NCBI GenBank assembly: GCA_016205145.1
Contig: JACQJH010000002.1
Location: 240,001-272,000, forward strand
Length of the DNA: 32,000 nt
Direction: 5' to 3'
Source: Candidatus Iainarchaeum sp.
GTDB lineage: Archaea; Iainarchaeota; Iainarchaeia; Iainarchaeales; JACQJH01
Positions 2,806-29,460 of this stretch are shown in pieces. The notes beneath the pieces were generated by a model, which saw nothing but the letters and a program-made list of their open reading frames with translations, was not told the origin of the DNA and did no database searches. A program made the position numbers and the translations under genes. Each line of letters begins with the position of its first letter. Position 1 is the stretch's first letter.

Positions 2806-5475
2806 TCAGCCCGGCTCGAAAACGCTGTCCTTGAACTTTTTGTCGATTTTTGCAAGGCAGTGCGGAACGTTCTTGCAGTCTTCCTCGCCGAACGTGACGG
2901 TGACAGATGCCATGTCAGTCCTCGGGCTCCCGTCGCTTGTGCTGCCGAACTGGCACGCAACGAACTTGTGCTGTTCATTGAGGCCCATTTCGGAAACAGG
3001 CCTGCCGTCAATGGAAAACACGGGCCAGAAATAAGCCGCAGTCCTGTTGCCGAGCGAAAATTCCGACAACCCTTCCCTTGAAAAAATCTGGGTCTTGCCG
3101 GTTGAAACCGCGCCGTTGTCGCCGGAAACTACAAATGATGCGTTCGAGAAAGTTATGGATTGCGTGGCAAACACTTCAACCTGCACCACTTCAGCTTCGG
3201 AGGAACTCGGAGTGGTTGCCGACGGAACCTGCTGCGTTGAACCTGCGGATGTGCCGGTTCCGCCGCCAACAATGCTTGCCTGCTGAGGCGCCTGGTTCCA
3301 GCCCTGCCTGACTCCCTGCACAAAAGACGAAACCGCGTTGACCGCACCGATTACAACGCCTTTGACTGCCGAGCCAAGCCATGCGCCAAATCTTCCGGTC
3401 GCCCTGCCGGCCGAGCCTGCGACATTTGAAACCGTGACATCCTGCTGCAGTCCTGCAACCAAAACCTTGGCCGGGCCGATGGCAACAGTGAATTTGGAAA
3501 CGCCGCCAAGCAATGCCTCACTGTAAGCCGGGCCTGCCAATGGCGCGGCATTCGCGGTCGCAAGAATGCCGGTGTCGGCGCCCGCCGCCGCAAAGTCCTT
3601 TTTCACGTTGTCCGCTTCATCGCCTGAAACGGTTTCAGTGAACAGATTAGGGTCCAGCCCGGTGTTCGAGGCATCGGGTTTCTTTTTCACAGTATCGTTG
3701 TTTTTCGCGTCAATCAAATACCTTGCAACCGCGGCCGGATTCTTGTAGTAATACGTGACATACTTGTAATCCACGCTGTCCGTCTTCTGCTCAGATGTTT
3801 TTATCTGGTCGATTTTTTTCTGCCCGTTCTCCTCGTAAGCCGATCCGTCTGCAAGGGCGCCGGAAACGTCTGCCGGGTGCGCATAGGAAATGGGCGTTTT
3901 TTTGTCGCCGGCAATTCTCAAAACCTGCCTGGGATAAACCGCGGTTATTTCATAAGCCGCATTTGCCGGGACGGCCGCGCCGCTTCCGCCAGCGCCCGTG
4001 CCTTCAGCTGTGCCGCCGGCGCTTGACGGCTCAACGCTTGAAATGTAGTCCTCGCGGATTTTCGAGCGGATGTCCGAGCAAATCTTCGTGGAATCCGCGG
4101 TTGCGTCGGCAACAGACAAATAAAGCTCCTTGTCGGTGTCGGCGCCGTCCAATTTCAAAAAGAATGGTGCAAGCGTTTCAAGCCTCGCATCCTTCCACTC
4201 CTTTGTGCCGGCAAGATTTCTTGCCCCGACCTTGAAGGAGTCCCCTGACTGGACTATGATCTGGTCAAAAACCAGGTTGCCGTTAAGCTGTGTCGGATAC
4301 TCTATCGTGCCTTCGGGGGTAAGCCTGAACGTCACAAAGCCCCATGGGTCGGCGTCATCATCCGACGGTATTACACTGCAATTGCTTGAACTCCACTTTG
4401 TTCCGGCACCGATTTTGCCTGCATCCATGCCAACACAATAAGTGTAAATGCCGGGCTGAGGCGCCTGAACGCTTGACATCCCATCGAAAATATTGCGGAT
4501 GTTCGCAGAACAGCCGTGCGTCACTGCAGTGCCATTTTTCAGGCCGGTTTCAATTTTGCCCCACAGCATCTGCTTCCAGTCGTTCGGCCCGAGATTCAGG
4601 AAAAAGCCCTCGCTTGCAATGACCGGCCTGGAAACGCCGTTGTCCGTCAAAACCCTTGCATCGGCATAGCCCTGGTAATCGTCCTTTATTATGTCCTGCT
4701 CGGAATCCGGCGTGAAAATCTTGTTCGCCCTTTCATCCTCCCTGAAGCAGGTGCTGCCGTCAATGCTGGGCTGGGCGGCGCGCCACAAAAAGATTTTTGC
4801 CGGAAGCTTTGCCTTTACCTCGCTTTCAAAGCCCGTTGAAGGCCTGACGGCAAAGGCAATCGTCCGCTGGTCCGCGCGCTTTGTCGCCCTGACGTCAATG
4901 ACATTGTGCCCAAACGGGGCGCCGGCGGCATCCCTCAATTCCGGGTCGAACTTTCCGGTAAAAACGCCCGGCGAAAACGCCCTCTTGCCTCCCGAACTAA
5001 CATCACAATAGCATACATCCGTTCCGGAGCAGGCCCAGCCGTAAGCCTTTTTCTCTTCCTTGCCCCAGACAACATTCCAGTTTTCGCCCGGCGAAGAGGA
5101 AGCGCATTTTGCATCCGTGCCCGAACCGTTCCAGGCACCGCATTGGCCGGAACAGGTCAGTTTTGGCGCGGGCGCAACCGAACGCGAAGAAGAACCGGAA
5201 GACCTTGAACCGCCGCGCTTTGTAACAGTCCTGGCAGAGCCGGAAGAATCAGGCTTCGGCGCAGGAGCCACGGCAGGAGAAGCCCCAGCAACGGTAAAAG
5301 CGGTGGGCGTTATATTCACTATTTGAACAGGGGCGGGGGGAGTTGTAGCACGCGGGATTGCGGATGGAGCCGGCGGTGCCTGTCCTTGGACAAAAATGAA
5401 AACCGCGGAAAATGCTGCGAGCGCAAGCAAAAGCGCCAAAAAGTGTTTTCGATTGAAGCCGGACAAACGCGACAT
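2806..5475 (-). CDS. Large secreted protein (889 aa), no family recognised
   Basis: Long ORF with an N-terminal hydrophobic signal/anchor (HFLALLLALAAFSAVFIFVQG), P/A/S-rich spacers and a Cys-rich stretch (CSGQCGAWNGSGTDAKC...CSGTDVCYC). An amphipathic Gly-rich hydrophobic segment (GRFGAWLGSAVKGVVIGAVNAV) follows. After an S/T/G linker, the C-terminal module (AAYFWPVF...FVACQFGSTSDGS) resembles the C-termini of the three L proteins upstream. Confidence 0.8.
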   Translation of the reverse strand: MSRLSGFNRKHFLALLLALAAFSAVFIFVQGQAPPAPSAIPRATTPPAPVQIVNITPTAFTVAGASPAVAPAPKPDSSGSARTVTKRGGSRSSGSSSRSVAPAPKLTCSGQCGAWNGSGTDAKCASSSPGENWNVVWGKEEKKAYGWACSGTDVCYCDVSSGGKRAFSPGVFTGKFDPELRDAAGAPFGHNVIDVRATKRADQRTIAFAVRPSTGFESEVKAKLPAKIFLWRAAQPSIDGSTCFREDERANKIFTPDSEQDIIKDDYQGYADARVLTDNGVSRPVIASEGFFLNLGPNDWKQMLWGKIETGLKNGTAVTHGCSANIRNIFDGMSSVQAPQPGIYTYCVGMDAGKIGAGTKWSSSNCSVIPSDDDADPWGFVTFRLTPEGTIEYPTQLNGNLVFDQIIVQSGDSFKVGARNLAGTKEWKDARLETLAPFFLKLDGADTDKELYLSVADATADSTKICSDIRSKIREDYISSVEPSSAGGTAEGTGAGGSGAAVPANAAYEITAVYPRQVLRIAGDKKTPISYAHPADVSGALADGSAYEENGQKKIDQIKTSEQKTDSVDYKYVTYYYKNPAAVARYLIDAKNNDTVKKKPDASNTGLDPNLFTETVSGDEADNVKKDFAAAGADTGILATANAAPLAGPAYSEALLGGVSKFTVAIGPAKVLVAGLQQDVTVSNVAGSAGRATGRFGAWLGSAVKGVVIGAVNAVSSFVQGVRQGWNQAPQQASIVGGGTGTSAGSTQQVPSATTPSSSEAEVVQVEVFATQSITFSNASFVVSGDNGAVSTGKTQIFSREGLSEFSLGNRTAAYFWPVFSIDGRPVSEMGLNEQHKFVACQFGSTSDGSPRTDMASVTVTFGEEDCKNVPHCLAKIDKKFKDSVFEPG

Positions 5476-5565
5476 TCCAACGCACTCCGCAAAAACCTTT
5501 CCACACCAAAGCCGATAAAAACCAAATTAACTGATTAATGCAATAAGACTATTAGCGATTTTCTG

Positions 5566-5573
5566 TATAAAAA
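5566..5573 (-). promoter_or_regulatory. Candidate archaeal TATA box (minus strand cATTTTTATAc) upstream of the 889 aa gene
   Basis: The reverse complement of 5561-5578 is aaacATTTTTATAcagaa. It lies in the 113 nt gap between 5589 and 5475. The same 9-mer ATTTTTATA recurs at 7389-7396 and 11474-11481. It sits 91 nt upstream of the ATG, implying a long leader. Confidence 0.35.
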
Positions 5574-5588
5574 TGTTTTCCCTGCAAA

Positions 5589-6758
5589 TCAAATCCATCC
5601 CGAAGACTTACCCTGGCATGATCCTGAAGTGCCGGACTTTGTGCACTCAAATGATACCCAGAACCCGCCACCGCCATCATATAATGTCTCCAACTCGAAA
5701 TAGCCGGTCCACGCCCTCGCACTGTAATACCTCCAAAAATATCCTTTAGGAAGCCCCGACGCAGTATACCGTGCAACAACCCCGCCTTGAAGCTCCGGCG
5801 TAAGACTGCCCGGATACTCGGCAACCTTGGTCCGCGCACGGGTTCCATTGGAATTCTGCACCAAAAAAAGCGTTGCCGACGTGATTGTTTTGCCCGGCGC
5901 CTCCAGGGAAGGCAAGAGAACCAGGAAAGAATTCGCGGGCGGCGCAGAAGGGGCAGGACCCGGCGAAGGAGAAGGGCCCGGAGCAGGACCGGGGGAAGGC
6001 GCTGGCGCGGTTCCGCCAAGACCGGCATCAACCATTGCTTTGGCCGCGCCGTCTTTGGTCCCATACCGGACATATTCAATGTTTGCAATCAAGGTTTCGC
6101 CAAGACCGGCAGTGCCGGCACGGTAATTTGCAGCCAAGATCCGAACGGTCAGGACAATGGTGTCATTCGGATAATCGGGGCTTATGAAACTGAAAGGCGC
6201 TGAACGCGTTGTCTGGACATATTTTGGGCCAGCACTGGTTGGATACGGAATCCTGCCGGTAACAGGGTCCATCTGCGCTTTCAACCGGCTTGCAATGACA
6301 CCCACATCATCGCCCATTTCAAGCCAGGCGAACCGTTCCATTGGCGCGTTAGAACCGGAAAGCGTTGGTGCAGGCGCCTGCTTGAAAGTAGTCAGTATGC
6401 GCGGGTCGCGGTAATGCGTGTCCAATCCCAAGTCGAAGCCTTTGACATTCACTTTCGGCGTCCAAGTCCCGTAAACGCCAATATCAATGCCGCCCTTTCC
6501 GCCATCGGGATGAGAACCAAGACAAAATGACAGGTAAAGCTCGCCATCATTGGCCTGGGGGGCGCCCCTATAGCGGTCGGCGCATCCGGGAAGTATTCCT
6601 GCAACCACGATTTGGCTTCGTTTGATTTCAGTTGTTTGGGCAAATGCGGCGGAAGCGAACAAAACAGTGGCGAAAACCAAAACCGCAATCTTTTTTGTTT
6701 GCCCGGCCATTCCACACACTTTGAAATTATTGTTGCTTGTTGTTTTATGCGTTTTCAT
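5589..6758 (-). CDS. Secreted protein L3 (389 aa), third copy of the L family (shares only the linker and C-terminal module)
   Basis: Signal peptide MAGQTKKIAVLVFATVLFASAAFAQT if translation starts at the ATG at 6710. The ATG at 6758 would overlap the upstream gene by 14 nt. Pro-rich linker APAPSPGPAPGPSPSPGPAPSAPP, then a C-terminal module PANSFLVLLPS...GYFWRYY...GFWVSFECTKSGTSGSCQ that aligns with L1 and L2. Confidence 0.8.
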   Translation of the reverse strand: MKTHKTTSNNNFKVCGMAGQTKKIAVLVFATVLFASAAFAQTTEIKRSQIVVAGILPGCADRYRGAPQANDGELYLSFCLGSHPDGGKGGIDIGVYGTWTPKVNVKGFDLGLDTHYRDPRILTTFKQAPAPTLSGSNAPMERFAWLEMGDDVGVIASRLKAQMDPVTGRIPYPTSAGPKYVQTTRSAPFSFISPDYPNDTIVLTVRILAANYRAGTAGLGETLIANIEYVRYGTKDGAAKAMVDAGLGGTAPAPSPGPAPGPSPSPGPAPSAPPANSFLVLLPSLEAPGKTITSATLFLVQNSNGTRARTKVAEYPGSLTPELQGGVVARYTASGLPKGYFWRYYSARAWTGYFELETLYDGGGGFWVSFECTKSGTSGSCQGKSSGWI

Positions 6759-7353
6759 CCGCGCACAATTCCTTCAAATCCGCGGCGTTTGCATGCACGA
6801 CAATGAAAGAATCCTCCGCATTTTCAACCAGGACAAAATCCGCGCCGAAAACCGTTTTTTTCGCCTCATCCGGAAACGACTTGTTGAATTCCGAAATTTT
6901 TTCCGAAAAGGTTTCGGCTTTGTCCAAAAAAACCGCGAACGCCAAGTCAAGTTCCACGAAATCCGAAAGCCTTCCGCAGGCGGAAACATCTTCCGGCTTT
7001 GAATCCATGAAAGCCTTCAGCACAGCCGCCTTTGCGCGCGCATCCTTTTTGGTTTCAAGATAGTCAACAAGCAGAAGGTTTAATTCCTTGAACTGCGCAA
7101 AGCCATTGCTGTTGCCGCTGGCCGCGGAAAGCTCGGCCCTCAAACCCGAAAACCGGTCGGGCAAAATGTTTTCCGCGGCTTCCGGCCCGGCCGGCGAAAC
7201 CTTTCCAATGTCAACGCCGTATTTGAGCCAGACGCCCTTGATTGCGTTGTAATCGCTTCCGGCATTCTGCACGAAAAAGACTGCAAGCAGGGCAAGCGCA
7301 ATCACAAGCAAAATTCCGGCCAAGAATATTTTGCGCAAGACAAAAACCTCCAA
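6745..7353 (-). CDS. Small signal-anchored protein S3 (202 aa), member of the S family
   Basis: One N-terminal TM helix (IFLAGILLVIALALLAVFFV). It aligns by eye with S1 and S2 at LRAELSAASGNSNGF, ACGRLSDFVELDLAFAVFLDKAETFSEKISEFNKSFP and C-terminal LKELCADEN. Both Cys positions are conserved. Confidence 0.8.
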   Translation of the reverse strand: MEVFVLRKIFLAGILLVIALALLAVFFVQNAGSDYNAIKGVWLKYGVDIGKVSPAGPEAAENILPDRFSGLRAELSAASGNSNGFAQFKELNLLLVDYLETKKDARAKAAVLKAFMDSKPEDVSACGRLSDFVELDLAFAVFLDKAETFSEKISEFNKSFPDEAKKTVFGADFVLVENAEDSFIVVHANAADLKELCADENA

Positions 7354-7388
7354 ACAAAATGCCAGTAAAAACTATTATTGAATTCCAA

Positions 7389-7396
7389 TATAAAAA
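7389..7396 (-). promoter_or_regulatory. Candidate archaeal TATA box (minus strand gATTTTTATAt) upstream of S3
   Basis: The reverse complement of 7385-7400 is cagATTTTTATAttgg. It lies in the 72 nt gap between L2 (ends 7426) and S3 (starts 7353), 36 nt upstream of the S3 ATG. Confidence 0.4.
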
Positions 7397-7425
7397 TCTG
7401 CCTTGAACGCCGGAAACGCCAAACA

Positions 7426-8895
7426 TCATTTTGCCGTGCCCGGCTTTGGCGAAGGCAGGCAGTCGCCGACCGGATTGCAGCCGCCGCGCTCGTTGCCGGA
7501 TGAAAAGCATTCGAAACTGCAGGCATAGCCTGAACCATCATCAAAAGTCGTGGCGACCGAAAATACTCCGGTGGACATTTCAGCGAGGTAATAGCGCCAA
7601 AAAATGCTCGTAACTTTTTTGTCGCGCTGCCTGTAGACGCCGCCGGCGGTGTCAAGCAGGCGCTCTGTGAGGCTTGAAAAATTCACAAGGCTTTCGCCCT
7701 GTTTTTTAAAAACCGCGACCGGCTCGACAATCGTCCTTCCTTGAGGTTCCGGAACAGGGAGGTAAATCAAAAAATTGGCCGGCACGGACGGGTGCCTTGT
7801 TGCTGCACCGCCGGCAGGCGGAGTCGTGGAAGAACCTCCAGATGGTGCCGGCGCAGTTCCGCCGCCGGGGGGAGCAGGCGCGGGAGCAGGCGTAGTGCCG
7901 CCATTGTTTTTCTCCGCTTCTTTCATTTCATCAAGAATCTTTTTCGCTTCAGCCGCTGCTTCGGGGGAAACTTCGCCGCAAGGCCATTGCCCTAAAAAAC
8001 TCGTTTTTGGGTCTATTTCAAGGTCGTCAAAGCTTATGCGCCCTGCCTTTCCCCTGCTCAGGTAAAGGTCCAATGTGACAATGCCATTGTACCTTGACTT
8101 GAACTTCAAAACATGGCTCTCATCGGCTTTTATGTTAACATTCCCCAGGCTGCCGCGTGAAACTATCGTGAAATTTATTTTGTTGCTTCCGGGAGTTTCA
8201 GGCAGCAATGTGGCATCATCCTTCCAAGACCTGCCGTCCGACTGCCTTGCTTCTGTGACAACGATTGTGGCGCTTCCGGAAGCGCCTTGCCTTGGAATGT
8301 TAAGGGTTCCTTTTTGGGTATGAATCCGGTAAATTGAGCTTATGCCCACAACGCTTGTTCCGCCGCCTGAAACGCCCGGGCACAAAACCAGATAGTCTTT
8401 TGTGTGAAGCACCGGCGCAGGCGTCGAACCCGTGGCGCCGACCGCGCGCAATCCAAGGTAAGCAAAAAAAGCATACACTCCGCCAACTGCGGTTATGCCT
8501 GCAAGTTTTACGCCAACAGGGATAAGCTTAGCCTTCCAAAGAAGCCTTATTGGTGCCCAGAACCATCGGGCCGTGCCGGCTATTGCCCTGCCTGCAAACC
8601 CTAAAGCTCCGCCCGCGGCTGTTTTGGCGGCAGCGCCCGCGCCGGCCGCGGTAACGCTGGCCGCTGGAAGCGCCCACCACAAAACCAATGCCAAAACAAT
8701 TGTCCCGATTATTCCGACGGTCCAGTTCCTGCCGGAATAATTCCTGATCCAGCCTTTCACGTTTTTCACGGTGTTCGGGCTTGAACCCTGCGTGTCGCCT
8801 TCAACGGTCGCAAAGGCGAAGTCCGCGGACAAAAGAATGAAAATCACGAACAGGCAGTAGAAAAAAGCCCTGCAAAAAAATTTTTTTGCTGCCAT
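7426..8895 (-). CDS. Secreted/membrane protein L2 (489 aa), L family
   Basis: Signal peptide ending FAFA-T, then a VKGW motif and a long Gly/Ala-rich hydrophobic region. The extracellular domain aligns with L1 at LCPG, YRI, NFTI, LKF, NGIVTL, ISFDDL and WPC. A P/G/A/T linker follows. C-terminal module PANFLIYLPVP...IFWRYY...YACSFECFSSGNERGGC. Its ATG directly abuts the S2 stop (TGAATG). Confidence 0.85.
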   Translation of the reverse strand: MAAKKFFCRAFFYCLFVIFILLSADFAFATVEGDTQGSSPNTVKNVKGWIRNYSGRNWTVGIIGTIVLALVLWWALPAASVTAAGAGAAAKTAAGGALGFAGRAIAGTARWFWAPIRLLWKAKLIPVGVKLAGITAVGGVYAFFAYLGLRAVGATGSTPAPVLHTKDYLVLCPGVSGGGTSVVGISSIYRIHTQKGTLNIPRQGASGSATIVVTEARQSDGRSWKDDATLLPETPGSNKINFTIVSRGSLGNVNIKADESHVLKFKSRYNGIVTLDLYLSRGKAGRISFDDLEIDPKTSFLGQWPCGEVSPEAAAEAKKILDEMKEAEKNNGGTTPAPAPAPPGGGTAPAPSGGSSTTPPAGGAATRHPSVPANFLIYLPVPEPQGRTIVEPVAVFKKQGESLVNFSSLTERLLDTAGGVYRQRDKKVTSIFWRYYLAEMSTGVFSVATTFDDGSGYACSFECFSSGNERGGCNPVGDCLPSPKPGTAK

Positions 8896-9516
8896 TCAGC
8901 CAGCCTCCGCAATGGCTTTTTCTTCCTCGCAACCGGCCTTCAGCCATGAAAGCATTTCTTCCAAATCCGAAACCCTCTGGCCGTCAACCGGCCACAAAAC
9001 ATCGCTGTTTGAAATGTTGCCAAGCCCGGAATAAACCGCAGGATAGTTTGATTCCAATGACACCATGCCCGCTTCAAGTTTTTGCGACGAGGACAGAGCG
9101 CTTTTTGCGTTTGAAACGGTTTGTTCAAGCAAAGGAATGCTGGGGCACAATTCCACGGACTCATAAGCGGAATCATATGCTGCTTCAAATTCCAGCGAAG
9201 ACGCGACAAACTTTCCAGTGTCCTGCCCCGCGTCAACCGCGCTTGCGGCAACCTTTGCCGCTTCTGCCCATCGGCCCCGGTTGGTTGACGCAAAACCCTC
9301 AAGCCTTTTTTTCAAGGCAGATGCTTCGGCATCATCCAAAAGCATTGCGGATTCCACAACCAAGCCTGATGCAGGGCTTACGCCAGCATCGGAAAGAATT
9401 GCCTGAAACTTCTGTTCCGCGGACATTGGCTTCGTTGGCGGCAGGAAAAAAAAGTATAATCCCAAAAGCAATGCTATGACCGCGATGCCAACCAAGGCTT
9501 TTACAAGAAAACCCAT
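8896..9516 (-). CDS. Small signal-anchored protein S2 (206 aa), S family
   Basis: N-terminal TM helix (LVGIAVIALLLGLYFFFL). Conserved blocks LKKRLEGFASTNRGRW, LCPSIPLLEQTVSNAKSALSSSQKLEAGMVSLESNYPAV and LKAGCEEE match S1 and S3. Confidence 0.85.
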   Translation of the reverse strand: MGFLVKALVGIAVIALLLGLYFFFLPPTKPMSAEQKFQAILSDAGVSPASGLVVESAMLLDDAEASALKKRLEGFASTNRGRWAEAAKVAASAVDAGQDTGKFVASSLEFEAAYDSAYESVELCPSIPLLEQTVSNAKSALSSSQKLEAGMVSLESNYPAVYSGLGNISNSDVLWPVDGQRVSDLEEMLSWLKAGCEEEKAIAEAG

Positions 9517-9528
9517 CTGCTCAGCCTA

Positions 9529-10791
9529 TTAATCTACCGCTTTCGAAAGAACGCCTTGAGTACGTGCCTGACAAGAAAGCGCGCCATCTGGGTTGGCACA
9601 ATTAAAGGTGGCACCGGAATAAACCGCGCCATTGGAATATAATGCCCCAAGCTTCCAGCCGCCCAGCGGCACTGACACAGTGTATTGATAGAATTTCTGG
9701 CCGCCAAACGTGAAAATCTTTGCCCTGCCGCTCGCATCAGTCCTCGCAAATTTGTCGGTCTCCACAATAGGCGTGTCATCCGAATTGCGAATCCTCAAAA
9801 CATCAACCGTTACACTGCCGCCTGGCGCAGGCACATAAACGTAAGCAGGGTAAATCGGTTGACCGCTAGTCTGCTGCAAGGCCGGCGCGGCGGGCGCTGG
9901 CGTGGAACCGCCGGACCCCGGTGCATTGCCTGCCGGCGGAGCAGAAGCCCCGGCATTCTGGGCTTTGGCAATTGCTGCCCCTGCCTGAGTCTTAAGCGCT
10001 TCAGAAATCGCAGAACACGGATTTTGCCCCGAAATTGTCGAACCCTGAGCCAAAAGGAGGTCATTCCAGCGTATCCCGCCTTTTGCCTGCGAAGCGTTCA
10101 GCACAATGGTTATTTCGCCGTTCAAATTAGAAACATATTTGAGAGTAGCCGGATTGTTTTTCAGATTGCTTATATATCCGTGCACGCCACCCCTTGATTC
10201 CGCCCACGTTGCAATGGTGAAGCTTACGGGTTGCGTTCCAATCGAAGTCCACCGCGCATCAGCACCCGCTTCCTGAACTTCAATATTCGCGGTAACTGGC
10301 GCATTTGTGTTGAACGTCCAATCACGATAAGAAGGCATGACCACTTGCCGGGCAATTATCTTATAGAATCCGGATTGGCCTTTCCCGTCTTCGGAAGGTG
10401 AAAAAGGGCAAATGTTTGCAAAGCCGTTTGCGACAAAGGCTTGGTCCCCCGTGGGCCTTGCACCATAACGATAACCCAAAAAACCCAAAGCGCCGACTAA
10501 ACCGGATCCAACAAGTCTGCCGATAACAGCCTTTGCGGTCAGTCCGGCTGCCCCTTTAGCAAGACCGCTTGCCAGCCAGCCGCCGGGAATAAAAACACCA
10601 ACAAGGACAGATACGCCAGTAACACCCCACGCAACGTACCTTTCACCCTGATTTATCGTCCAGCCCGTCACGTTTGCAGTGTGCGCGTTATCAGGGTAGG
10701 TCACGCCTTTTATCGTGGCAAACGCGTAGGAAGAACTCAACAGGATGAAAGCGGAAAAAAGGACCAAAAAGTTTGTGAAGCGCATTTTCAT
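9529..10791 (-). CDS. Secreted/membrane protein L1 (420 aa), L family
   Basis: Signal peptide ending YAFA-T, then a VTGW motif and a Gly-rich hydrophobic region (GWLASGLAKGAAGLTAKAVIGRLVGSGLVGALGFLGY). The domain is homologous to L2. Linker ASAPPAGNAPGSGGSTPAPAAP. C-terminal module PAYVYVPAP...KFYQYT...ATFNCANPDGALSC. Confidence 0.85.
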   Translation of the reverse strand: MKMRFTNFLVLFSAFILLSSSYAFATIKGVTYPDNAHTANVTGWTINQGERYVAWGVTGVSVLVGVFIPGGWLASGLAKGAAGLTAKAVIGRLVGSGLVGALGFLGYRYGARPTGDQAFVANGFANICPFSPSEDGKGQSGFYKIIARQVVMPSYRDWTFNTNAPVTANIEVQEAGADARWTSIGTQPVSFTIATWAESRGGVHGYISNLKNNPATLKYVSNLNGEITIVLNASQAKGGIRWNDLLLAQGSTISGQNPCSAISEALKTQAGAAIAKAQNAGASAPPAGNAPGSGGSTPAPAAPALQQTSGQPIYPAYVYVPAPGGSVTVDVLRIRNSDDTPIVETDKFARTDASGRAKIFTFGGQKFYQYTVSVPLGGWKLGALYSNGAVYSGATFNCANPDGALSCQARTQGVLSKAVD

Positions 10792-10815
10792 AATAATTCA
10801 CGTTGCATAGTTTTT

Positions 10816-11430
10816 TTATTCTTGATTGGCGTCAAAGTTAACTTCCGGGTTTTCGCAGTCGGCTTTGAGGCCCGCATTGAAAGTTTCGGATTCCGAAATC
10901 GTTTCCTGCGTCGGCGCAACAAGCCCGTCGCCCTCGGCCAAAATCTTCACTGAAGAAAGAACATTCGGATAATTCTTTTCAAGCGATTTTATTTTCGATT
11001 CAAAAACGGTTTTTGACTGCGCCAGCTTTTTTGAAACATCAACAAAGCTTTGCAACGAATCCATGCCGGGGCACAGGTCGGGCCAGTCCGACATTCCTGT
11101 AAAAAGCGCGGCGCGCCCGTTCGACGAATTGATGAAAACCGCGTAATTTTCTGAATAGTCCACCAAAGATGAAAGTGCGGAGCCCATTTCCTTCCATCCC
11201 CCGCTTTGCCCGGCCGAAAATTCTTCCAAATCAGCTTTCAATGCCAGGCGCTTTGAAGATTCAAGCACCATGGTTTTGTCGGCAAGGTAATCGGATTCCG
11301 CGTTTACGCCGTATTTGGCGTAAACCGATTTGAGTTCAGTGAAAGCGCCTGCAGGACCGGAAAAAAACAGCACGTATCCCGCGGCCAAAACCGCCAAGAC
11401 AACGATTGCAACCAAAAATTTGTTCGCCAT
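10816..11430 (-). CDS. Small signal-anchored protein S1 (about 204 aa), S family
   Basis: The track ORF is 10816..11472 and starts at a TTG. The in-frame ATG at 11430 (MANKFLVAIVVLAVLAAGYVLFF) gives a normal signal anchor and leaves room for the TATA-like box at 11474-11481. Conserved blocks LKADLEEFSAGQSGGW, LCPGMDSLQSFVDVSKKLAQSKTVFESKIKSLEKNYPNV and LKADCENPE. Confidence 0.8.
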   Translation of the reverse strand: MANKFLVAIVVLAVLAAGYVLFFSGPAGAFTELKSVYAKYGVNAESDYLADKTMVLESSKRLALKADLEEFSAGQSGGWKEMGSALSSLVDYSENYAVFINSSNGRAALFTGMSDWPDLCPGMDSLQSFVDVSKKLAQSKTVFESKIKSLEKNYPNVLSSVKILAEGDGLVAPTQETISESETFNAGLKADCENPEVNFDANQE

Positions 11431-11473
11431 TTTCCCGCCGTTTTGCTTTTCGTTAATTACATTGGTTTGCAAG

Positions 11474-11481
11474 TATAAAAA
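11474..11481 (-). promoter_or_regulatory. Candidate archaeal TATA box (minus strand tATTTTTATAc) upstream of S1
   Basis: The reverse complement of 11471-11486 is gaatATTTTTATActt. It lies 44 nt upstream of the ATG at 11430 and just downstream of the collagen-like gene stop (11493). Confidence 0.4.
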
Positions 11482-11492
11482 TATTCGTTTTT

Positions 11493-12368
11493 TCAGGGCA
11501 CGCGCCTTTGCATTCTAATCGGTTTTTTTTTGCCCCACAAGCCTTTCACTATTGCCTGCCTTCCGCGCACAGCCGAAACCCTTGGCGTCAAAACGGTCCT
11601 GCCGGCGGTGCGCACGGCGCCAGTAATTGCCCTTCCGGTTCCCCTTGCAAGCCTTCTTCCAAAACCCGGACCGGATGGCGCGGCTCTGACTGTTCCAGGC
11701 AAATCAACGTATCTTCCCCGGATTCCATTCATCCGCGCGTCAACTCCTGCAAGCGCCCGCCTGAAAGCTGACATGTGCTTTGGAGCGTAAGACCTTGGGC
11801 CTCTTTGTGCGATTCGTTCGCGTTGTGCGCGCAACGCATTGTAGGCTCTTGCATCCCTTGGACTCATTGTCAGGCCATGCTGCGTGCCAACGTAATGCGA
11901 GCCGGAAAACTGCCTTGCCGGATTCTCGGCCGCCTTGCCTTGCTCGCCGCGCTCGCCCTGCAGGCCTTGGGGACCGGGTTCGCCTTGCACGCCCTGCAAG
12001 CCCTGCAAACCTTGTTCACCACGCTCACCCTGCAGGCCAGGCAAGCCGCCACCGCCTCCACCGCCAGCAGGCGCAGGACCTGGAGCAGGACCACCACCAG
12101 CAGGAGGGCTTGACGCCGGAGCAGGCGGCATAACGGGTGGCACTGGTGCCGGAGCAGGAGGAACAGGAGTCGGAGTTGGCGCAGGCGCTGGCGTGCGCGC
12201 GGCCCGTGCAGCCAAGGCAGCTTGCCTTTTCTCACGCCAAACAGGCCTTCGCCCCTTAAGCCCAAAAACCGGGCCGACCGGCGTCTTGGACAAAGCCCAG
12301 TCAACCGGCGCGGTTACAACCTTGGCGCCAAGCTTAGCAGTTTTCCACACCGCACCAAGAATGCCCAA
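11493..12368 (-). CDS. Collagen-like repeat protein (291 aa) with a Pro-rich spacer and a basic Arg-rich C-terminal half
   Basis: ORF with a TTG start at 12368, preceded by GGTGG 6 nt upstream on the minus strand. It has an amphipathic N-terminus, a P/A/T/V-rich stretch and a G7 run. Thirteen uninterrupted G-X-Y triplets follow (GLPGLQGERGEQGLQGLQGVQGEPGPQGLQGERGEQGKA). It is co-directional with its neighbours. Confidence 0.75.
   Translation of the reverse strand: MGILGAVWKTAKLGAKVVTAPVDWALSKTPVGPVFGLKGRRPVWREKRQAALAARAARTPAPAPTPTPVPPAPAPVPPVMPPAPASSPPAGGGPAPGPAPAGGGGGGGLPGLQGERGEQGLQGLQGVQGEPGPQGLQGERGEQGKAAENPARQFSGSHYVGTQHGLTMSPRDARAYNALRAQRERIAQRGPRSYAPKHMSAFRRALAGVDARMNGIRGRYVDLPGTVRAAPSGPGFGRRLARGTGRAITGAVRTAGRTVLTPRVSAVRGRQAIVKGLWGKKKPIRMQRRVP
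11931..12047 (-). repeat. Collagen-like (G-X-Y)x13 coding repeat
   Basis: Residues 108-146 of the 291 aa ORF. The first codons were checked base by base (12045-47 ggc G, 12042-44 ttg L, 12039-41 cct P). The DNA shows recurring ctgcaggcc/ctgcaagcc units. Confidence 0.85.
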
Positions 12369-12404
12369 AAAAAACCACCAAACCTATTTTTGCTACACGG
12401 GCCT

Positions 12405-13580
12405 CTAGACGCCCCCACTATCTTGTTCGCGTTCCAGTTGAGCCTTTAATGTATCCCTGCGTTGCCGCAAATCTGCAAGCGCGGCTTTAGCAGCATCTAC
12501 GTTCGCAGGCAAAACAGACAACTGCTCATCCAAGCGCTGCTTAGTGCCCGGAATTGCCTCCAAAGCCTGTTGAGCCAGCTTATACCGGCGTGCACCCTCT
12601 TGCTTCCACTGTCCCGCCAAACGCACCCGTTCCTCCGGACTTGAAACCGCCCACTCCCACCGCTGCCTCAACCAACGCCCATCAGCAAACGCCAGTGCAG
12701 CCACTTGAGCACGATGCGCATCCGCCCCTCTCTGCAACAAGCCATCCGATTCACGCTTAACCCTTGCAAGAGTAGCCTCCAAATCCTGCAAAGCCCTATC
12801 AGCACCCGCAACAGCCCTGTCGGCTTCCCTTAACGGCGCCAATCGGTCGCGCTCAGCCCGGCCGGCCCGCACAGACGCAGTGGCACTTGCAACACCGCTT
12901 CTCGCGGCAGTCAGCAACTTGCGCGCAGGACCCTGTTCGCCTGCAGGCCTTTGCCTTCTGCTCTGGTCTTCCAATAATGGCGGTGGTGCAGGAGATTCGA
13001 TTCCAGCCCGCGCACTATGCTCTAGCAAGCCAAGCTGGCCGCCCAAAGCCACGACTCGTCGGCGCAATTGCAATAGTTGGTGTAACGATTCCGCGGGAAG
13101 CTCAGTCCGGGAAACATCCCGAAGCTGGCGTTCTAAATCTATAAGCGTAGTAATAGCCATTTGTAACTCAGAGCCTATTTGCTGGCGTTCCTCATTCCGG
13201 CGCTCCGATTCAAGCATCCGCCGGCCGCTTGAAGTAAGCCGCATAACAGCCACTTGACTGGAAGTGCGATTTGGAATGGGTTCCATTAGTGTCGGAGCAA
13301 TTTGCTCCCAAGCACTCATCACTTCCCAGGCACCGGCGCGTAGCTCGCGCACAGCAGCCAGCCTAGCATGCGCTTCAGCGGCACCAGACTCAGCGACATG
13401 CTCGACATGCGCTTCAGGCTCTCCCAAATCCTCGCCCCGAAGATTGGCGCGAGCCCACGCCGCTGCAACATCCGGATCCCAATGTTCAGTGAAACGCGGG
13501 TCGCTCACATGCTGCCTGCGCCTTCTTCCGCCTTGGCCCTTGCCAGGACCCCCGCCTTCACGCGGCGGTTCACTAGCCAT
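12405..13580 (-). CDS. Arg/Ala-rich coiled-coil protein (391 aa), paralog A
   Basis: No signal peptide. The C-terminal ~155 aa align clearly with the 288 aa neighbour (RDRLAPLREADRAVAGADRALQDLEATLARVK...GRWLRQRWEWAVSSPEERVRLAGQW vs RRRLAPLRAANRAVSGAEKTLQGLEATLKRAR...GHWLRQRWERLVSNPEEKARLAEQW). No family recognised. Confidence 0.8.
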   Translation of the reverse strand: MASEPPREGGGPGKGQGGRRRRQHVSDPRFTEHWDPDVAAAWARANLRGEDLGEPEAHVEHVAESGAAEAHARLAAVRELRAGAWEVMSAWEQIAPTLMEPIPNRTSSQVAVMRLTSSGRRMLESERRNEERQQIGSELQMAITTLIDLERQLRDVSRTELPAESLHQLLQLRRRVVALGGQLGLLEHSARAGIESPAPPPLLEDQSRRQRPAGEQGPARKLLTAARSGVASATASVRAGRAERDRLAPLREADRAVAGADRALQDLEATLARVKRESDGLLQRGADAHRAQVAALAFADGRWLRQRWEWAVSSPEERVRLAGQWKQEGARRYKLAQQALEAIPGTKQRLDEQLSVLPANVDAAKAALADLRQRRDTLKAQLEREQDSGGV

Positions 13581-13606
13581 CCCGGTTCACCAGCCGGATT
13601 AATTCA

Positions 13607-13630
13607 CTAGTCATCTTACTAGTCATCTTA
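13607..13630. repeat. Perfect tandem duplication of the 12-mer ctagtcatctta (x2) in the leader of paralog A
   Basis: 13607-13618 equals 13619-13630. A degenerate third copy (cactagccatcc, 13571-13582) overlaps the ATG of the 391 aa gene. Confidence 0.9.
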
Positions 13631-13653
13631 TCACATGATAAATGGTTTAATCT

Positions 13654-13668
13654 CCTATTTAATTCTTG
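13654..13668 (-). promoter_or_regulatory. 15 bp exact repeat cctatttaattcttg (minus strand caagaATTAAATAgg), TATA-like, upstream of paralog A
   Basis: Identical 15-mer at 14627-14641. On the minus strand it contains ATTAAATA preceded by a purine-rich, BRE-like aagaa. It lies 74-88 nt upstream of the ATG at 13580. Confidence 0.45.
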
Positions 13669-13708
13669 GCGTGAAAGCCAAAATTGGCAAGCCAAAACGA
13701 AAACGATT

Positions 13709-14575
13709 TCAGTTTCGTTCGCTGTCTTTGACTCCAAGCTCGGCGCGCAAAGTCTCTCTCTCGGACTGCGATTGTTCTAGCTTGGCCTGTGCCTCGGCTA
13801 TTTTCGAGGGCAGTTCATCCAATTGTGTTTCCAATCGCGCCCTAAGCCGCGGAATTTCAGCCAATTCCCGTTCGGCTAAAGCGTGGAGCCTTTCACCTTC
13901 GCGCATCCATTGCTCCGCCAAACGCGCCTTTTCCTCCGGATTTGAAACCAACCGTTCCCATCGCTGCCTGAGCCAGTGCCCATTCTTCCATGCCCGTGCC
14001 TTAACCAAGGCACGGTTCGCATTAGCCTCCCGTTGCGATAAACCATCAAATTCAAGCCGGGCTCTTTTGAGAGTAGCCTCCAAACCCTGCAAAGTTTTTT
14101 CAGCGCCTGAAACGGCCCTGTTGGCTGCCCTCAGCGGCGCCAATCGCCTGCGCTCAGCCAGCCTGCCTCTCACAAAAGTGCCAACACCTCGAATGCCGCG
14201 GCCTGTGCCGGCCAGGAGATCGCGGACGCCACGCTTGGGTGGCAATAAATTTAATCCCCTTGCCGTTCCATTGCGCGGGCGGCCCCTGCCTTGGCCCCTG
14301 CCAGGCGTCACACGCATGCCGGGTTCCTGATGCACACTAGAAAAATCCCCTGGCCCGGGAAAAACGGGTGGAATGTAAGGCGGTTGCCTTCTCCTTTCGC
14401 CCGGTAATGGTGCGGGTTCAAACCGGATAGGCGCCGTTGCGGGGTCCACGGCGCGCTGTCTGGGGCGCTGCCGGAAACCTGTTGCCGGACGGAAATCTGA
14501 TTCGCTTATCACGCCGTGGTCAACAAGCACTTGACCCAAAGTCTTCCTAGGCCTTTGGGGAGGAGTTTCAGCCAA
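13709..14575 (-). CDS. Arg-rich coiled-coil protein (288 aa), paralog B
   Basis: Pro/Arg/Gly-rich, probably disordered N-terminal half. The C-terminal coiled-coil domain is homologous to the 391 aa protein. No signal peptide. Confidence 0.8.
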   Translation of the reverse strand: MAETPPQRPRKTLGQVLVDHGVISESDFRPATGFRQRPRQRAVDPATAPIRFEPAPLPGERRRQPPYIPPVFPGPGDFSSVHQEPGMRVTPGRGQGRGRPRNGTARGLNLLPPKRGVRDLLAGTGRGIRGVGTFVRGRLAERRRLAPLRAANRAVSGAEKTLQGLEATLKRARLEFDGLSQREANANRALVKARAWKNGHWLRQRWERLVSNPEEKARLAEQWMREGERLHALAERELAEIPRLRARLETQLDELPSKIAEAQAKLEQSQSERETLRAELGVKDSERN

Positions 14576-14626: not shown

Positions 14627-14641
14627 CCTATTTAATTCTTG
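14627..14641 (-). promoter_or_regulatory. Second copy of the 15 bp repeat cctatttaattcttg, TATA-like, upstream of paralog B (may also serve the divergent + gene)
   Basis: Exact match to 13654-13668. It lies 52-66 nt upstream of the ATG at 14575 and 60-74 nt upstream of the + strand ATG at 14701. Confidence 0.45.
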
Positions 14642-14700
14642 TGTCGAAAAATTCCGTTTGTTTAAAAACCGTTTCATGGCAATTCTTTTCCGGGCTGGCA

Positions 14701-15528
14701 ATGGCGCGGATTGAAAAAAATGGCAACTCCTTTTCACTGAAATTGTCCGAAGCCGAGGCGAAAAGCCTCAATATTGCAGAAGGCAAAAACTTTTCCGTTG
14801 CCAAAGTGCGCGACGGCCTGTTTGTTTTCGAGGAAAGCGCGGGCGAAAAGGAAAAAAATGCTTTGCTGGCGGGCAGAGGGTTCGAGCAACAGCGAGAACC
14901 CTCAACGTCGGACCCGGCGGACGAAACCGCCGAAAAAAGCAATCCTTTCGCGGAGCAGGACCGGAAAATCTTTTCCCTGCTTGAAAGCCTGCCCGCAGCC
15001 GACATAGTGGAAGGGAAATTTGAAAAGCAATTGAACAAGGAAGAGCTGGAGCGCTTCCAGTCGCTTTTGAAAGGCGGCGGAATCGAAAGGTTCAAGTCCT
15101 CGCCCAAATATTTCAAGTTCTTGTACAGGCAGGCCGCAAAACCGGCCAAAAAAAAGGAAAGCGAAAATCCTGCCGCGGAGGAAAAGGCGATTGAAGAGTA
15201 TTCGCTTGAAAAGGACGGCTTTTTTGTCGCAAAAAACGAGGAGCGCGTGAAGAGAATTTCGCAGGAGTTCGAGGAAAAAATCAAGAATGGCGAAATCCGC
15301 GGCATGAAGTCGTTTGACGGAAACTATTACATTGTCGAGGACGCCCTGCTGCAGAAGCACAGGCAGAAGGTTTTGGACTGCCTGAAAGCGGAAAAGCAGG
15401 CGAGCGTCGAAACCGTTGCGCAAAAAACTTCCATAAGCAAGACGCTTGCGAAAATCTGCTGCGAGTTCCTGAAAGAGGACGGCGAAATAATGGAAAAGCG
15501 CAGGGACATGTACTCGTTCATCGAATGA
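14701..15528 (+). CDS. Lys/Glu-rich hypothetical protein with a possible AbrB/SpoVT-like N-terminus and a winged-helix-like C-terminus
   Basis: The track ORF 14641..15528 starts at GTG. The first ATG is at 14701 (MARIEKNGNSFSLKLSEAEAKSLNIAEGKNFSVAKVRDGLFVF). The C-terminus (SVETVAQKTSISKTLAKICCEFLKEDGEIMEKRRDMYSF) looks wHTH-like. Domain calls are by eye only. The antisense ORF 14628..15305 is low-complexity S/F-rich and was rejected. Confidence 0.7.
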   Translation: MARIEKNGNSFSLKLSEAEAKSLNIAEGKNFSVAKVRDGLFVFEESAGEKEKNALLAGRGFEQQREPSTSDPADETAEKSNPFAEQDRKIFSLLESLPAADIVEGKFEKQLNKEELERFQSLLKGGGIERFKSSPKYFKFLYRQAAKPAKKKESENPAAEEKAIEEYSLEKDGFFVAKNEERVKRISQEFEEKIKNGEIRGMKSFDGNYYIVEDALLQKHRQKVLDCLKAEKQASVETVAQKTSISKTLAKICCEFLKEDGEIMEKRRDMYSFIE

Positions 15529-15574
15529 AAAAAAATCGCGTTCTCATGGGAAACTTGCCCCGATTACCCTTTTA

Positions 15575-16210
15575 TTGGCTTTCGGGCACACTCTTTTCAT
15601 GGAAGTCGAATTCAGGGGCAATGAAATCGTTTTCAACCGGCCGTTGTCTTATTTGGACAAACTTGTTCTCAGGTTCGTGAAAATACTCGAAAAATCAGGC
15701 ATAAGCCACGTGATAATTTCCGGCTACATTGCAATCCTTTTTGGCAGGAGCAGGAACACAGAAGATGTTGACCTGTTCATAGAGGAAACCGGTTTTGAAA
15801 AATTCTCCGCGTTGTGGTCGGAGCTTGAAAGGCAGGGCTTTGAATGCATCAACGCGTTTTCCGCGGAAAGCGCGTACAACGATTACCTGAAAGGGAAGCT
15901 TGCAATCAGGTTTGCGGAGAAAGGCGAAATCATCCCGAATTTTGAAATAAAATTTCCAAAAACAAGGCATAATGAATACTCTCTGAAAAACAAGCTGGTT
16001 GTCGTGCTGAACGGCGAAAAAATCAGCACTTCAGAATTGGAAATGCAGATAGCATTCAAGCTGAAGCTTGGAAGCCAGAAGGATTTCGAGGATGCAAGGC
16101 ACTTGTACAAATTGTTTAAAGAACAACTAAACACGGGTTTATTGCAGTTGCACATATCAGACCTTGGCGTTGAAAAAGAGGCTGAGAGGATACTATGGAA
16201 AAAGTACTGA
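15575..16210 (+). CDS. Nucleotidyltransferase-fold protein (MNT/pol-beta-like superfamily)
   Basis: SGYIAILFGRSRNTEDVDLFIE fits the G[SG]-x(9-12)-D-x-D minimal nucleotidyltransferase signature. The start is uncertain: TTG at 15575 or ATG at 15599. The stop overlaps the start of the next gene. Confidence 0.65.
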   Translation: MAFGHTLFMEVEFRGNEIVFNRPLSYLDKLVLRFVKILEKSGISHVIISGYIAILFGRSRNTEDVDLFIEETGFEKFSALWSELERQGFECINAFSAESAYNDYLKGKLAIRFAEKGEIIPNFEIKFPKTRHNEYSLKNKLVVVLNGEKISTSELEMQIAFKLKLGSQKDFEDARHLYKLFKEQLNTGLLQLHISDLGVEKEAERILWKKY

Positions 16211-16377
16211 AGCTCACAAAAGATGAGCTGAAAGAGCTTGAAGAGGAAAAAAAGCGCAACTTCGAGCAGAGAATGCAGTTTATAGACCTGTACGTGGAAT
16301 GGCTCAAAAAAAAGCCGAACAAGGCCTGGGCGAAAGGCCAGAACAGGCTTTTGAGCAGGGCAAAGGCTGAAACATGA
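16195..16377 (+). CDS. Small charged helical protein (60 aa), hypothetical
   Basis: Its ATG at 16195 overlaps the end of the upstream gene, and its stop overlaps the next start in an ATGA. This is a translational-coupling geometry. The sequence is K/E-rich and probably coiled-coil. Confidence 0.55.
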   Translation: MEKVLKLTKDELKELEEEKKRNFEQRMQFIDLYVEWLKKKPNKAWAKGQNRLLSRAKAET

Positions 16378-16781
16378 AAGACGTGAAAGTGCTCATTCCC
16401 TTGCTGTCAAAACTGGAAAACAATCAGGCTTTCCTTGACAGGGCATGCGAAGGCGCAAAGGAAATAATCGTTCTGGCGGTAATCGACCGCAGTCTGATGG
16501 TGGGGCAATTCGGTTTCTGCGCTTCGGAAATGATGGCCGCCAATGACGTCATGGAGGAAATGAGGAAAGCGATCGGCCAGAAGCGCAAAACGTGCAACGA
16601 CATAGTCGAATGGGGCGACACGCTCCAGAAAACCGTGAACATCGCAAAAATCCATTCGGCCGACAAAATCTTTCTCGCACGGCAGGACAACAGGTATTTT
16701 GAGGAAATCGCAGGCGGCCTGGAAAGGGAACTGGGAAAGAAAAAAATCGAAATAGTTGAAATCGCGGCGCCGCAAGCGTAA
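16374..16781 (+). CDS. Hypothetical protein, possibly with a USP-like/adenine-nucleotide alpha-hydrolase-like fold
   Basis: 135 aa. The beta-alpha pattern MKDVKVLIPL...AKEIIVLAVID...ADKIFLAR resembles universal stress proteins, but I do not see the G-x2-G-x9-G(S/T) ATP motif. ATGA overlap with the preceding gene. Confidence 0.55.
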   Translation: MKDVKVLIPLLSKLENNQAFLDRACEGAKEIIVLAVIDRSLMVGQFGFCASEMMAANDVMEEMRKAIGQKRKTCNDIVEWGDTLQKTVNIAKIHSADKIFLARQDNRYFEEIAGGLERELGKKKIEIVEIAAPQA

Positions 16782-21078: not shown

Positions 21079-21222
21079 ATACGCCGCCTTCCTAGCCCAA
21101 AACTTCACCAACGGGTTTCTCCAAAAAAAACGGCCCCAATTGCACAAGCCACAATCGAAAATTTTGGTAAGCCGTGAAAAAACATTGTCCGTTTTATAAG
21201 TTAAAAATATGCATAGGTGGCA

Positions 21223-23085: not shown

Positions 23086-23095
23086 AATCAAACAC

Positions 23096-24316: not shown

Positions 24317-24423
24317 TCAAGTTAATTTAAAAGCCTTAAAATTTAAAACACATACCAAGAAATGCGTTAAAATACTAGTTTAAATAACAAAATTCCAATA
24401 CAACGGGGAAAAAAGACGGCAAC

Positions 24424-25388: not shown

Positions 25389-25412
25389 CCAGAAAACCAA
25401 TTATTTTCCCGG

Positions 25413-26819: not shown

Positions 26820-26828
26820 GCGGGAACT

Positions 26829-29447: not shown

Positions 29448-29460
29448 AAAAAAAAAGAAT

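Follow-up and report, generated by a model that had tools for sequence, protein, structure and literature searches.

The two-component S-layers of the Sulfolobales combine a small anchored protein, SlaB, with a large, exported, beta-rich one, SlaA, which are encoded next to each other and apparently co-translated. LemA (PF04011) consists of an N-terminal transmembrane (TM) segment and a helical domain of ~170 aa, and it pairs with a DUF2207-type membrane protein. Collagen-like surface proteins (Scl1/SclA and Lcl; PF01391) and phage tail fibres offer a further point of comparison. These are the closest described counterparts of a ten-gene locus found at positions 2806-14575 of a 32,000-nt stretch of Candidatus Iainarchaeum sp. 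DNA (contig JACQJH010000002.1, positions 240,001 to 272,000), referred to here as the window. The locus encodes two basic helical paralogues (g1 and g2), a basic protein with a short collagen-like run (g3, or col), three small and three large proteins in alternation (S1-L1, S2-L2, and S3-L3), and a large protein predicted to be secreted (g10). The reading we favour, with even confidence, is that the locus consists of two adjacent modules. Module B (the S and L genes and g10) would be a lineage-restricted, co-regulated envelope set, and module A (g1 to g3) would encode basic proteins that lack export signals.

By analogy, each S/L pair resembles SlaB/SlaA in joining a small membrane-anchored protein to a large exported beta-rich one in adjacent genes. 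However, Pfam and NCBIfam reveal no sequence similarity between them, the S proteins are anchored at the N-terminus, and the L proteins often have a TM hairpin of their own. Also unlike SlaA/SlaB, the S/L pair is triplicated and found in two organisms only. S proteins similarly recall LemA in size and layout, with a larger exported or TM protein adjoining, but no S or L protein has a Pfam match at E <= 0.1. The conserved disulfide of S argues for an outside-facing domain, unlike the LemA reading. The likeness to collagen-like surface proteins and phage tail fibres is confined to the GXY run of g3, where the profile matches align. g3 scores 15.2 bits against PF01391 (cutoff 27.2), 26.6 against NF046116 for Lcl (cutoff 500), and 20.3 against NF038330 for SclA (cutoff 400). 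Unlike the Scl and Lcl adhesins, g3 has no signal peptide, no LPXTG or other anchor, and a net charge of +34, and its flanks match nothing.

Layout and paralogy of the locus

Ten consecutive open reading frames (ORFs) on the minus strand span 2806-14575, separated by at most 128 nt, as the initial annotation had described. From g1 to g10, the successive gaps are 128, 36, 20, 24, 12, 0, 72, -14 (an overlap), and 113 nt. The genes are:

13709-14575, minus strand: g1, longest ORF
12405-13580, minus strand: g2, ORF of 391 aa
11493-12368, minus strand: g3 (col), ORF of 291 aa
10816-11472, minus strand: S1, longest ORF, with a TTG start; corrected to 10816-11430
9529-10791, minus strand: L1, ORF of 420 aa
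8896-9516, minus strand: S2, S-family paralogue of 206 aa
7426-8895, minus strand: L2, L-family paralogue of 489 aa
6745-7353, minus strand: S3, S-family paralogue of 202 aa
5589-6758, minus strand: L3, L-family paralogue of 389 aa
2806-5475, minus strand: g10, ORF of 889 aa

The paralogy proposed earlier for g1/g2, for the three S proteins, and for the three L proteins was borne out by all-against-all BLASTP among the locus proteins. g1 and g2 are 50% identical across 163 aa (E 3e-40), and their relationship is also visible in the DNA as a 281-nt repeat (72%). S1 matches S2 (E 3e-14) and S3 (E 2e-3), and L2 matches L1 (E 2e-7) and L3 (E 3e-4). The stop codon of S2 abuts the ATG of L2, leaving a 0-nt gap, and S3 overlaps the start of L3 by 14 nt. 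L2 is identical to the NCBI protein HY394_04470, encoded on a 637-kb contig of a Ca. Diapherotrites archaeon metagenome-assembled genome (MAG), which confirms the suggested DPANN origin of the DNA. The same sequence is present in the Logan assemblies of SRR12113383-85.

Conservation of gene order in a relative

In the collections searched, only one other organism has these families, an uncultured archaeal relative that carries most of the locus on three overlapping, identical contigs, L006, L005, and L008 (JGI 3300004210, ENA ERZ27293400). Its gene order is a partial Arg/Glu-rich protein, col, S1, L1, S2, L2, S3, L3, and an 894-aa g10 orthologue. All eight genes from col onwards are the best match of their positional counterparts, at 42-71% amino-acid identity:

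S1: 71% amino-acid identity to the orthologue
g10: 70% amino-acid identity to the orthologue
L3: 55% amino-acid identity to the orthologue
S3: 55% amino-acid identity to the orthologue
L1: 52% amino-acid identity to the orthologue
col (g3): 48% amino-acid identity to the orthologue
L2: 47% amino-acid identity to the orthologue
S2: 42% amino-acid identity to the orthologue

Of all the genes in the block, g10 is the best conserved. The one-to-one best matches indicate that the S/L triplication arose before the two organisms diverged and that all three pairs were kept. A nucleotide alignment of the whole block is collinear from ~12390 to 2806, the stop of g10, and falls to background level beyond both ends. 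Downstream of the g10 orthologue, the relative has an RHH/PIN toxin-antitoxin pair, not SufS. The collinearity and the differing flanks thus define g3 to g10 as the conserved unit, with SufS outside it. The expectation that the ten genes travel together therefore holds for g3 to g10 in one relative and is not borne out for g1 and g2, which have no detectable orthologue there. The relative's basic protein upstream of col is a positional and compositional analogue, encoded 16 nt from col, as g2 is 36 nt from g3. Its comparison with g1/g2 was not significant by BLAST, phmmer, or hhalign (probability <1%).

Nucleotide identity to the relative is mosaic, reaching 0.88-0.92 at 10720-10830, 5000-5190, and 3580-3880 and lying at ~0.5-0.7 elsewhere. 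These high-identity stretches correspond to the end of S1 with the spacer and the start of L1, to the Cys module of g10, and to aa 541-640 of g10. Synonymous change is lower within them, where 14-27% of conserved codons differ versus 40-54% elsewhere. Such a pattern would fit either exchange between lineages by recombination or selection acting on the nucleotide sequence. The S1-L1 spacer and the 5' end of L1 are ~90% identical to the relative, and the 30 nt directly 5' of the L1 ATG (10792-10821; GAATAAAAAAACTATGCAACGTGAATTATT) are the same in both organisms. A structured RNA at this hyper-conserved junction was rejected, as the sequence is less stable than its shuffles (z = +1.28). Weak folding is as expected for an open translation-initiation region.

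The S and L proteins

S proteins are acidic, have ~200 aa, and consist of one N-terminal hydrophobic anchor followed by a soluble domain with two invariant Cys. S1 has 204 aa when translated from ATG 11430, with an N-terminal signal-anchor TM segment and an ectodomain of ~170 aa that holds the two invariant Cys. This start is preferred because a conserved TATA-like box abuts TTG 11472, and it matches the start of the orthologue. Archaeal type IV pilin-like proteins have a class III signal peptide, with a [KR][GA] cleavage motif immediately ahead of the N-terminal hydrophobic helix, and are accompanied by assembly genes (ATPase, PilC-like, prepilin peptidase). The sequence K-A-[LAV] precedes the N-terminal helix in S2, in the orthologues of S2 and S3, and in an S-like protein from a distant locus (L010, described below). 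It is not present in S1, its orthologue, or the S3 of the window, no dedicated class III signal-peptide predictor having been run. No type IV pilus assembly genes were found among the ORFs of the window.

L proteins begin with an SPase-I-type signal peptide (AFA|T). In L1, a 2-TM hairpin comes next, and then a beta-rich middle domain that a Pro/Ala/Gly linker connects to a C-terminal beta domain containing a Cys pair. The two-helix hydrophobic hairpin is present in L1 and L2 and missing from L3, which has the signal peptide only. The middle domain of the family is bounded by conserved Cys and leads into a helix and then the Pro/Ala/Gly spacer. The C-terminal beta domain, of ~110 aa with an invariant Cys pair, is common to L3 as well. 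Invariant Cys columns number two in the S family and are C13, C266, and C276 of A4 in the L family. An AlphaFold2 (AF2) model of L2, built from a 5-sequence alignment, has low confidence (pLDDT 46.7). It comprises N-terminal helices, a beta-rich middle domain, and a helix at 311-330, after which a disordered Pro linker leads to a beta-sandwich at the C-terminus (pLDDT 60-78). This low-confidence secondary structure is in agreement with the anatomy derived from the sequence. AF2 of g10, also from 5 sequences, reached pLDDT 33.4 and is not interpretable. Both predictions failed because of too little sequence depth. With the L2 model unusable, the Foldseek comparison to the PDB (best E 0.63, generic Ig-like folds) is therefore meaningless.

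The extracytoplasmic character first ascribed to S, L, and g10 is upheld by their signal peptides, anchors, TM hairpins, and conserved Cys pairs. Because they combine export or anchor signals with conserved Cys pairs, these are probably envelope proteins.

g10 and its family

g10 is a multi-module protein of 889 aa that contains 14 Cys. It has a signal peptide but lacks a membrane anchor, and it is predicted to be secreted. Identity to the orthologue reaches 97% in a Cys module at aa 103-181 (nt 4933-5169), a Gly-rich amphipathic helix lies internally at aa 696-727, and the C-terminal module reads YWPVxSIDG...FxACQF...CLAKIDKKF. The NCBI model of 821 aa begins at residue 70 of the ORF, in a Pro-rich stretch past the signal peptide, and thus drops the signal peptide (5' end, 5272-5475). 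The signal peptide is conserved in the orthologue, and this conservation supports the long 889-aa form.

Among the locus components, only g10 has homologues beyond the syntenic relative. A phmmer search against 1.84e9 cluster representatives returned three distant homologues (E 7.5e-12, 2.5e-11, and 1.9e-4), designated P0006, P0007, and P0008, with P0007 coming from another Diapherotrites MAG. A g10-family profile run against 5.8e9 proteins (word index) added P0008 only. The family alignment (P0005-P0009) contains invariant W, F-x-A-C-Q-F, and C...C-x-A columns, which identify these proteins as members of one family. P0007 has the TCSGQCxAW Cys module. The family likeness also includes a PGxYTYCxGxD...CxVRP...WGxVT core, PFxLxIDxxDTxKxLYL, and the C-terminal YWPVxSIDG...ACQF...CLAKIDKKF. 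However, the homologues are 21-30% identical and lack the inserts of g10 at aa ~470-800. They are either shorter (511-596 aa) or fused to a HEMGH-motif region (P0006), and they have other neighbours, with no L-family genes present. P0006 (L013, 128-2827) has a long Q/T/S-rich linker followed by the C-terminal region with the HEMGH (zincin-like) motif. This motif hints at a protease fusion, and the protein has no Pfam match there.

In one distant locus, L010, three overlapping genes encode a 197-aa S-like protein, an exported protein of 990 aa that has both a signal peptide and a TM hairpin, and, last, a g10 homologue. The S-like protein has a TM segment, and its two Cys lie where those of the S family do (143 collinear columns in hhalign, E 6.5e-4, but a probability of only 27%). 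No homology to the L family was detected for the 990-aa protein (L10_990) or for L12_361. Just upstream, L010 also carries a second g10 paralogue and a basic helical protein of 284 aa. The latter was rejected as a g1/g2 homologue (hhalign probability <1%).

The g10 homologues of L010 and L012 are flanked (at L010 8803-11396 and L012 3040-3788) by proteins of 174 and 190 aa, each with a signal peptide and a C-terminal TM segment, that match each other (E 1e-8). A CARDB/NPCBM_assoc-like Ig-domain protein lies beside the 174/190-aa protein in L010 and probably in L012. The pair forms a second recurring surface-protein neighbourhood, which is not present in the window.

Promoter-like motifs and probable transcription units

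The promoter-like motif CAAGAATTAAATAGG precedes g1 and g2. AAGAATTAAATAGG (TATA-like TTAAATA) has exactly two copies in the 32 kb of the window, upstream of these two genes, and a different TATA-like box, ATTTTTATA, recurs in module B. Their positions are:

14627-14640, minus strand: AAGAATTAAATAGG copy 1, upstream of g1
13654-13667, minus strand: AAGAATTAAATAGG copy 2, identical to copy 1, 74-87 nt upstream of the g2 ATG
11474-11482, minus strand: TATA-like box ATTTTTATA before S1, 43 nt from its ATG (11430)
7389-7397, minus strand: TATA-like box ATTTTTATA before S3, matched at this place in the relative by ATTTTTTATA
5566-5574, minus strand: TATA-like box (C)ATTTTTATACAGA, ~90 nt upstream of g10; kept in the relative

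ATTTTTATA is near the archaeal TATA consensus. It has four copies in the 32 kb, a number that none of the shuffled sequences attained and that compares with an expectation of 0.31. In the relative, the copies before S1 and g10 are unchanged, and the one before S3 has an extra T. Before S1, the box is conserved together with the following GCAAACCAAT. No promoter-sized spacer is seen before L1, S2, L2, L3, or g3, the last of which begins 36 nt after g2, too little space for a promoter. From the sequence, five units are probable, falling into two promoter classes: g1, g2-g3, S1-L1-S2-L2, S3-L3, and g10. The earlier estimate of at least four transcription units fits this count.

A tandem 12-nt repeat (TAAGATGACTAG x2, ~13607-13630, minus strand) lies between the g2 motif and the g2 ATG. 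It lies near the expected transcription start and is a possible operator. The fourth ATTTTTATA copy, at 26454-26462 (minus strand), is inside and antisense to the gene of a 468-aa multi-pass O-antigen-ligase-like membrane protein, and is either a chance match or an antisense/internal promoter.

The basic proteins g1, g2, and g3

g1 is a basic, Arg-rich, helical protein of 288 aa from TTG 14575. Gene callers give it 202 aa from ATG 14317, so the two models differ by the region 14318-14575. The long form is consistent with the position of the promoter-like motif (14627-14640). The C-terminal ~165 aa of g1 are paralogous to g2, a basic helical protein of 391 aa. Net charges are +21 for g1 and +5 for g2, beside the +34 of g3. 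A hydropathy scan found no hydrophobic segment in any of the three or in the g3 orthologue, hence neither a signal peptide nor a TM segment, and all three lack Cys. On this reading of their sequences, g1 to g3 would be cytoplasmic or exported via an unknown route.

g3 has a conserved N-terminal region of ~60 aa, a Pro-rich stretch, a GXY-type run, and a basic C-terminal region. The collagen-like run (aa 102-146, nt 11931-12065) contains 13 clean triplets after a Gly run, and the orthologue has ~15. These 13-15 uninterrupted triplets are rich in Q/E/R/P. The collagen-like repeats noticed in the first description are thus real, though they stay below the Pfam cutoff.

The coiled coils ascribed to g1 and g2 in that description are not demonstrated by the sequences. 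Their hydrophobic periodicity peaks at 3.6, the heptad value of 3.5 is not significant, and the only matches are weak ones to SMC and JetC coil segments. g1 scores 16.8 bits against TIGR02168 (SMC; cutoff 567), with no ATPase head or full-length match, and 18.6 bits against JetC (PADLOC), over a coil segment only.

The GC shift over g1-g3 had been taken as a unit boundary. It sits in codon positions 1 and 2, reflecting Arg/Ala/Gly/Pro content, and the GC content at third codon positions (GC3) of g1-g3, 0.52-0.57, is the same as that of g4-g9. Since GC3 is equal, the shift is an amino-acid composition effect and signals neither foreign origin nor a boundary. Horizontal transfer as its explanation was rejected on the same ground.

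Family and mobile-element searches

Searches of Pfam, NCBIfam, PHROGs, and PADLOC with all ten proteins gave only collagen-repeat (g3) or weak coil (g1) noise, and neither g10 nor the profiles of the L and S families matched any PDB sequence. The statement that the locus holds no recognised family therefore stands. L2 and a low-complexity-trimmed L-core profile, run against 5.8e9 proteins (word index), found the window's organism and the one relative only. GTDB species representatives scanned with the N- and C-terminal modules of g10 yielded nothing, and the JGI metagenomes contained no contig beyond the one already identified. No account of this gene cluster turned up in a literature search.

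g3 matches PHROG tail-fibre families (PHROG 5073, 6320, 366, and others; best E 7.5e-8), but the matches cover only the GXY run at aa ~93-167 and do not make it a phage tail fibre. There are no other PHROG matches in the locus and no tail genes nearby. The JetC coil segment of g1 is the sole PADLOC-DB match, so no known defence-system component was recognised. The locus contains no integrase, capsid, ATPase, or replication gene, and no sign of a mobile element was seen in the form of a tRNA, an att-like flanking direct repeat, or hallmark families. IMG/VR had no match to g10, and tblastn of g10 and g2 against GenBank phages (50,697 records) had none either. The GC3 of the locus (0.51-0.62) is near that of neighbouring genes and gives no sign of foreign origin.

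A proposed organisation and its alternatives

In the two-module reading, S1-L1-S2-L2, S3-L3, and g10 of module B would be three transcription units with a common TATA-like box. Each S would be a single-pass signal-anchor protein whose ectodomain of ~170 aa is stapled by one conserved disulfide. The L proteins would be exported by Sec, L1 and L2 then being held at the membrane via the TM hairpin and L3 remaining unanchored. All three would display a beta-rich domain joined by a Pro-rich spacer to a distal beta-sandwich that a disulfide staples. The tight packing of S and L genes (gaps of 24, 0, and -14 nt) and the retained one-to-one arrangement imply that S and L are probably made together and pair 1:1. 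g10 would probably sit on or near the S/L complexes as a functional surface component, either a binding or a structural head. This role is suggested by its signal peptide, cysteines, and high constraint. Module A would comprise the units g1 and g2-g3, which have the other promoter motif in common, and would supply two helical paralogues and a protein with a short collagen-like triple-helix segment. It is tied to module B only by conserved adjacency, with col followed by S1 in both organisms. The gene order, paralogy, synteny, motifs, export and anchor signals, conserved cysteines, and rarity of the families are direct observations, whereas the S/L pairing, the surface location of g10, the co-regulation, and any part played in adhesion or host contact are inferred.

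Several observations weigh against this organisation. No protein of the locus has a detectable relative of known function, and the L family is undetectable outside the window's organism and its relative. Neither the relative nor the distant loci contain a detectable g1/g2 orthologue. With only one relative showing the synteny, the genes could have stayed together by descent and not by selection. The promoter motifs are consensus-level readings of sequence, and the hhalign probability of 27% makes the L010 protein a weak candidate for the S family. There is no enrichment of N-glycosylation sequons, and both AlphaFold models (L2 pLDDT 46.7, g10 33.4) are unusable.

The likeliest alternative, which we nonetheless consider somewhat unlikely, is that the locus consists of functionally unrelated units that are neighbours through the shared ancestry of two fairly close genomes. 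The two different promoter motifs, the division into five units, and the single syntenic relative would all fit, as would the undetected g1/g2 orthologue in that relative. The distant g10 homologues point the same way, lying without L-family genes beside the 174/190-aa and CARDB-like proteins. Mere proximity accounts less well for eight genes whose order is unchanged at 42-71% identity between flanks that are different on either side. The same applies to the single type of TATA box before S1, S3, and g10, which the relative retains with an extra T at S3, and to the recurrence in L010 of overlapping genes for an S-like protein, a large exported one, and a homologue of g10. A stronger version of the two-module reading, in which S/L heterodimer stalks bear g10 as a binding head and g1-g3 couple to them at the inner membrane face for attachment to or exchange with a host, is improbable in our estimate. 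The initial annotation had likewise proposed one apparatus with a scaffold, a membrane part, and a fibre for host attachment, for which neither homology nor a usable structure model speaks.

We judge it just as improbable that the S/L pairs and g10 are ordinary envelope building blocks forming the organism's main wall, an S-layer-type lattice with its anchors. Such a wall would agree with TATA boxes close to the archaeal consensus, as for highly expressed genes, with a small anchored and large exported pairing that recalls SlaB/SlaA, and with the acidity of the S proteins. An essential wall protein would, however, be expected in more than two sampled genomes, and here there is no similarity to any S-layer family of Pfam or NCBIfam and no enrichment of sequons. 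Least probable of all is a structural module of a virus or mobile element, comprising basic nucleoproteins, a col fibre, S/L envelope spikes, and g10 as an attachment/fusion protein. The PHROG tail-fibre matches of g3 (best E 7.5e-8) invite this comparison but are limited to the GXY run, aa 100-167. The strongly basic g1-g3 without export signals, the ORFan status of all ten genes, the Gly-rich amphipathic helix of g10, and the differing flanks of the block in the two organisms would also suit a viral origin. Against them stand the lack of an integrase, capsid, ATPase, replication gene, tRNA, or flanking direct repeat, the absence of matches in IMG/VR (g10) and in 50,697 phage records (g10 and g2), the host-like GC3, and the housekeeping neighbours SufS, TrpRS, and EndA.

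Genes around the locus

The downstream neighbour is SufS, identified by TIGR01979 (503.5 bits versus a cutoff of 475.1). Beyond it, a protein of at least 490 aa (1-1470, minus strand) has a signal peptide and a Cys-rich C-terminal half and runs off the window. The initial annotation had seen SufS and this 'lysozyme-like' protein as a continuation of the locus. Its identification of SufS was correct, but both genes lie outside the conserved block, and the lysozyme-like protein has no Pfam or NCBIfam match. Upstream, housekeeping genes encode TrpRS, a methyltransferase, and the tRNA-splicing endonuclease EndA. Between the locus and TrpRS, genes divergent from g1 (14641-16781, plus strand) encode a 295-aa protein without a family match, a DUF2204-like nucleotidyltransferase, a DUF8150 protein, and a 135-aa ORF. 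Neither Rfam nor tRNA scanning gave a match anywhere in the window.

Further along, 19837-31339 reads from its ORFs as a surface-glycan cluster, with three glycosyltransferases, an asparagine synthase, an O-antigen-ligase-like membrane protein, and a sugar transferase. It also holds a DUF4330 protein. This cluster could be a candidate glycosylator of the envelope proteins of the locus.

Implications for DPANN surface biology

The novelty of the locus is that its proteins have no detectable relatives and belong to families outside those catalogued, which is not the same as a demonstrated new mechanism. Its function may be ordinary envelope construction. The g10 family is small and so far consists of MAG proteins only, with at least one from another Diapherotrites, and the families of the locus are known from only two to five genomes. 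As the organisms are also uncultured, the locus is at present hard to test. How DPANN archaea make contact with other cells is poorly understood, and few candidate surface machines have been defined at the gene level. This locus provides a bounded candidate, with eight genes whose order is conserved in the one relative found, two recurring motifs, a triplicated anchor/ectoprotein pair, and one constrained secreted protein.

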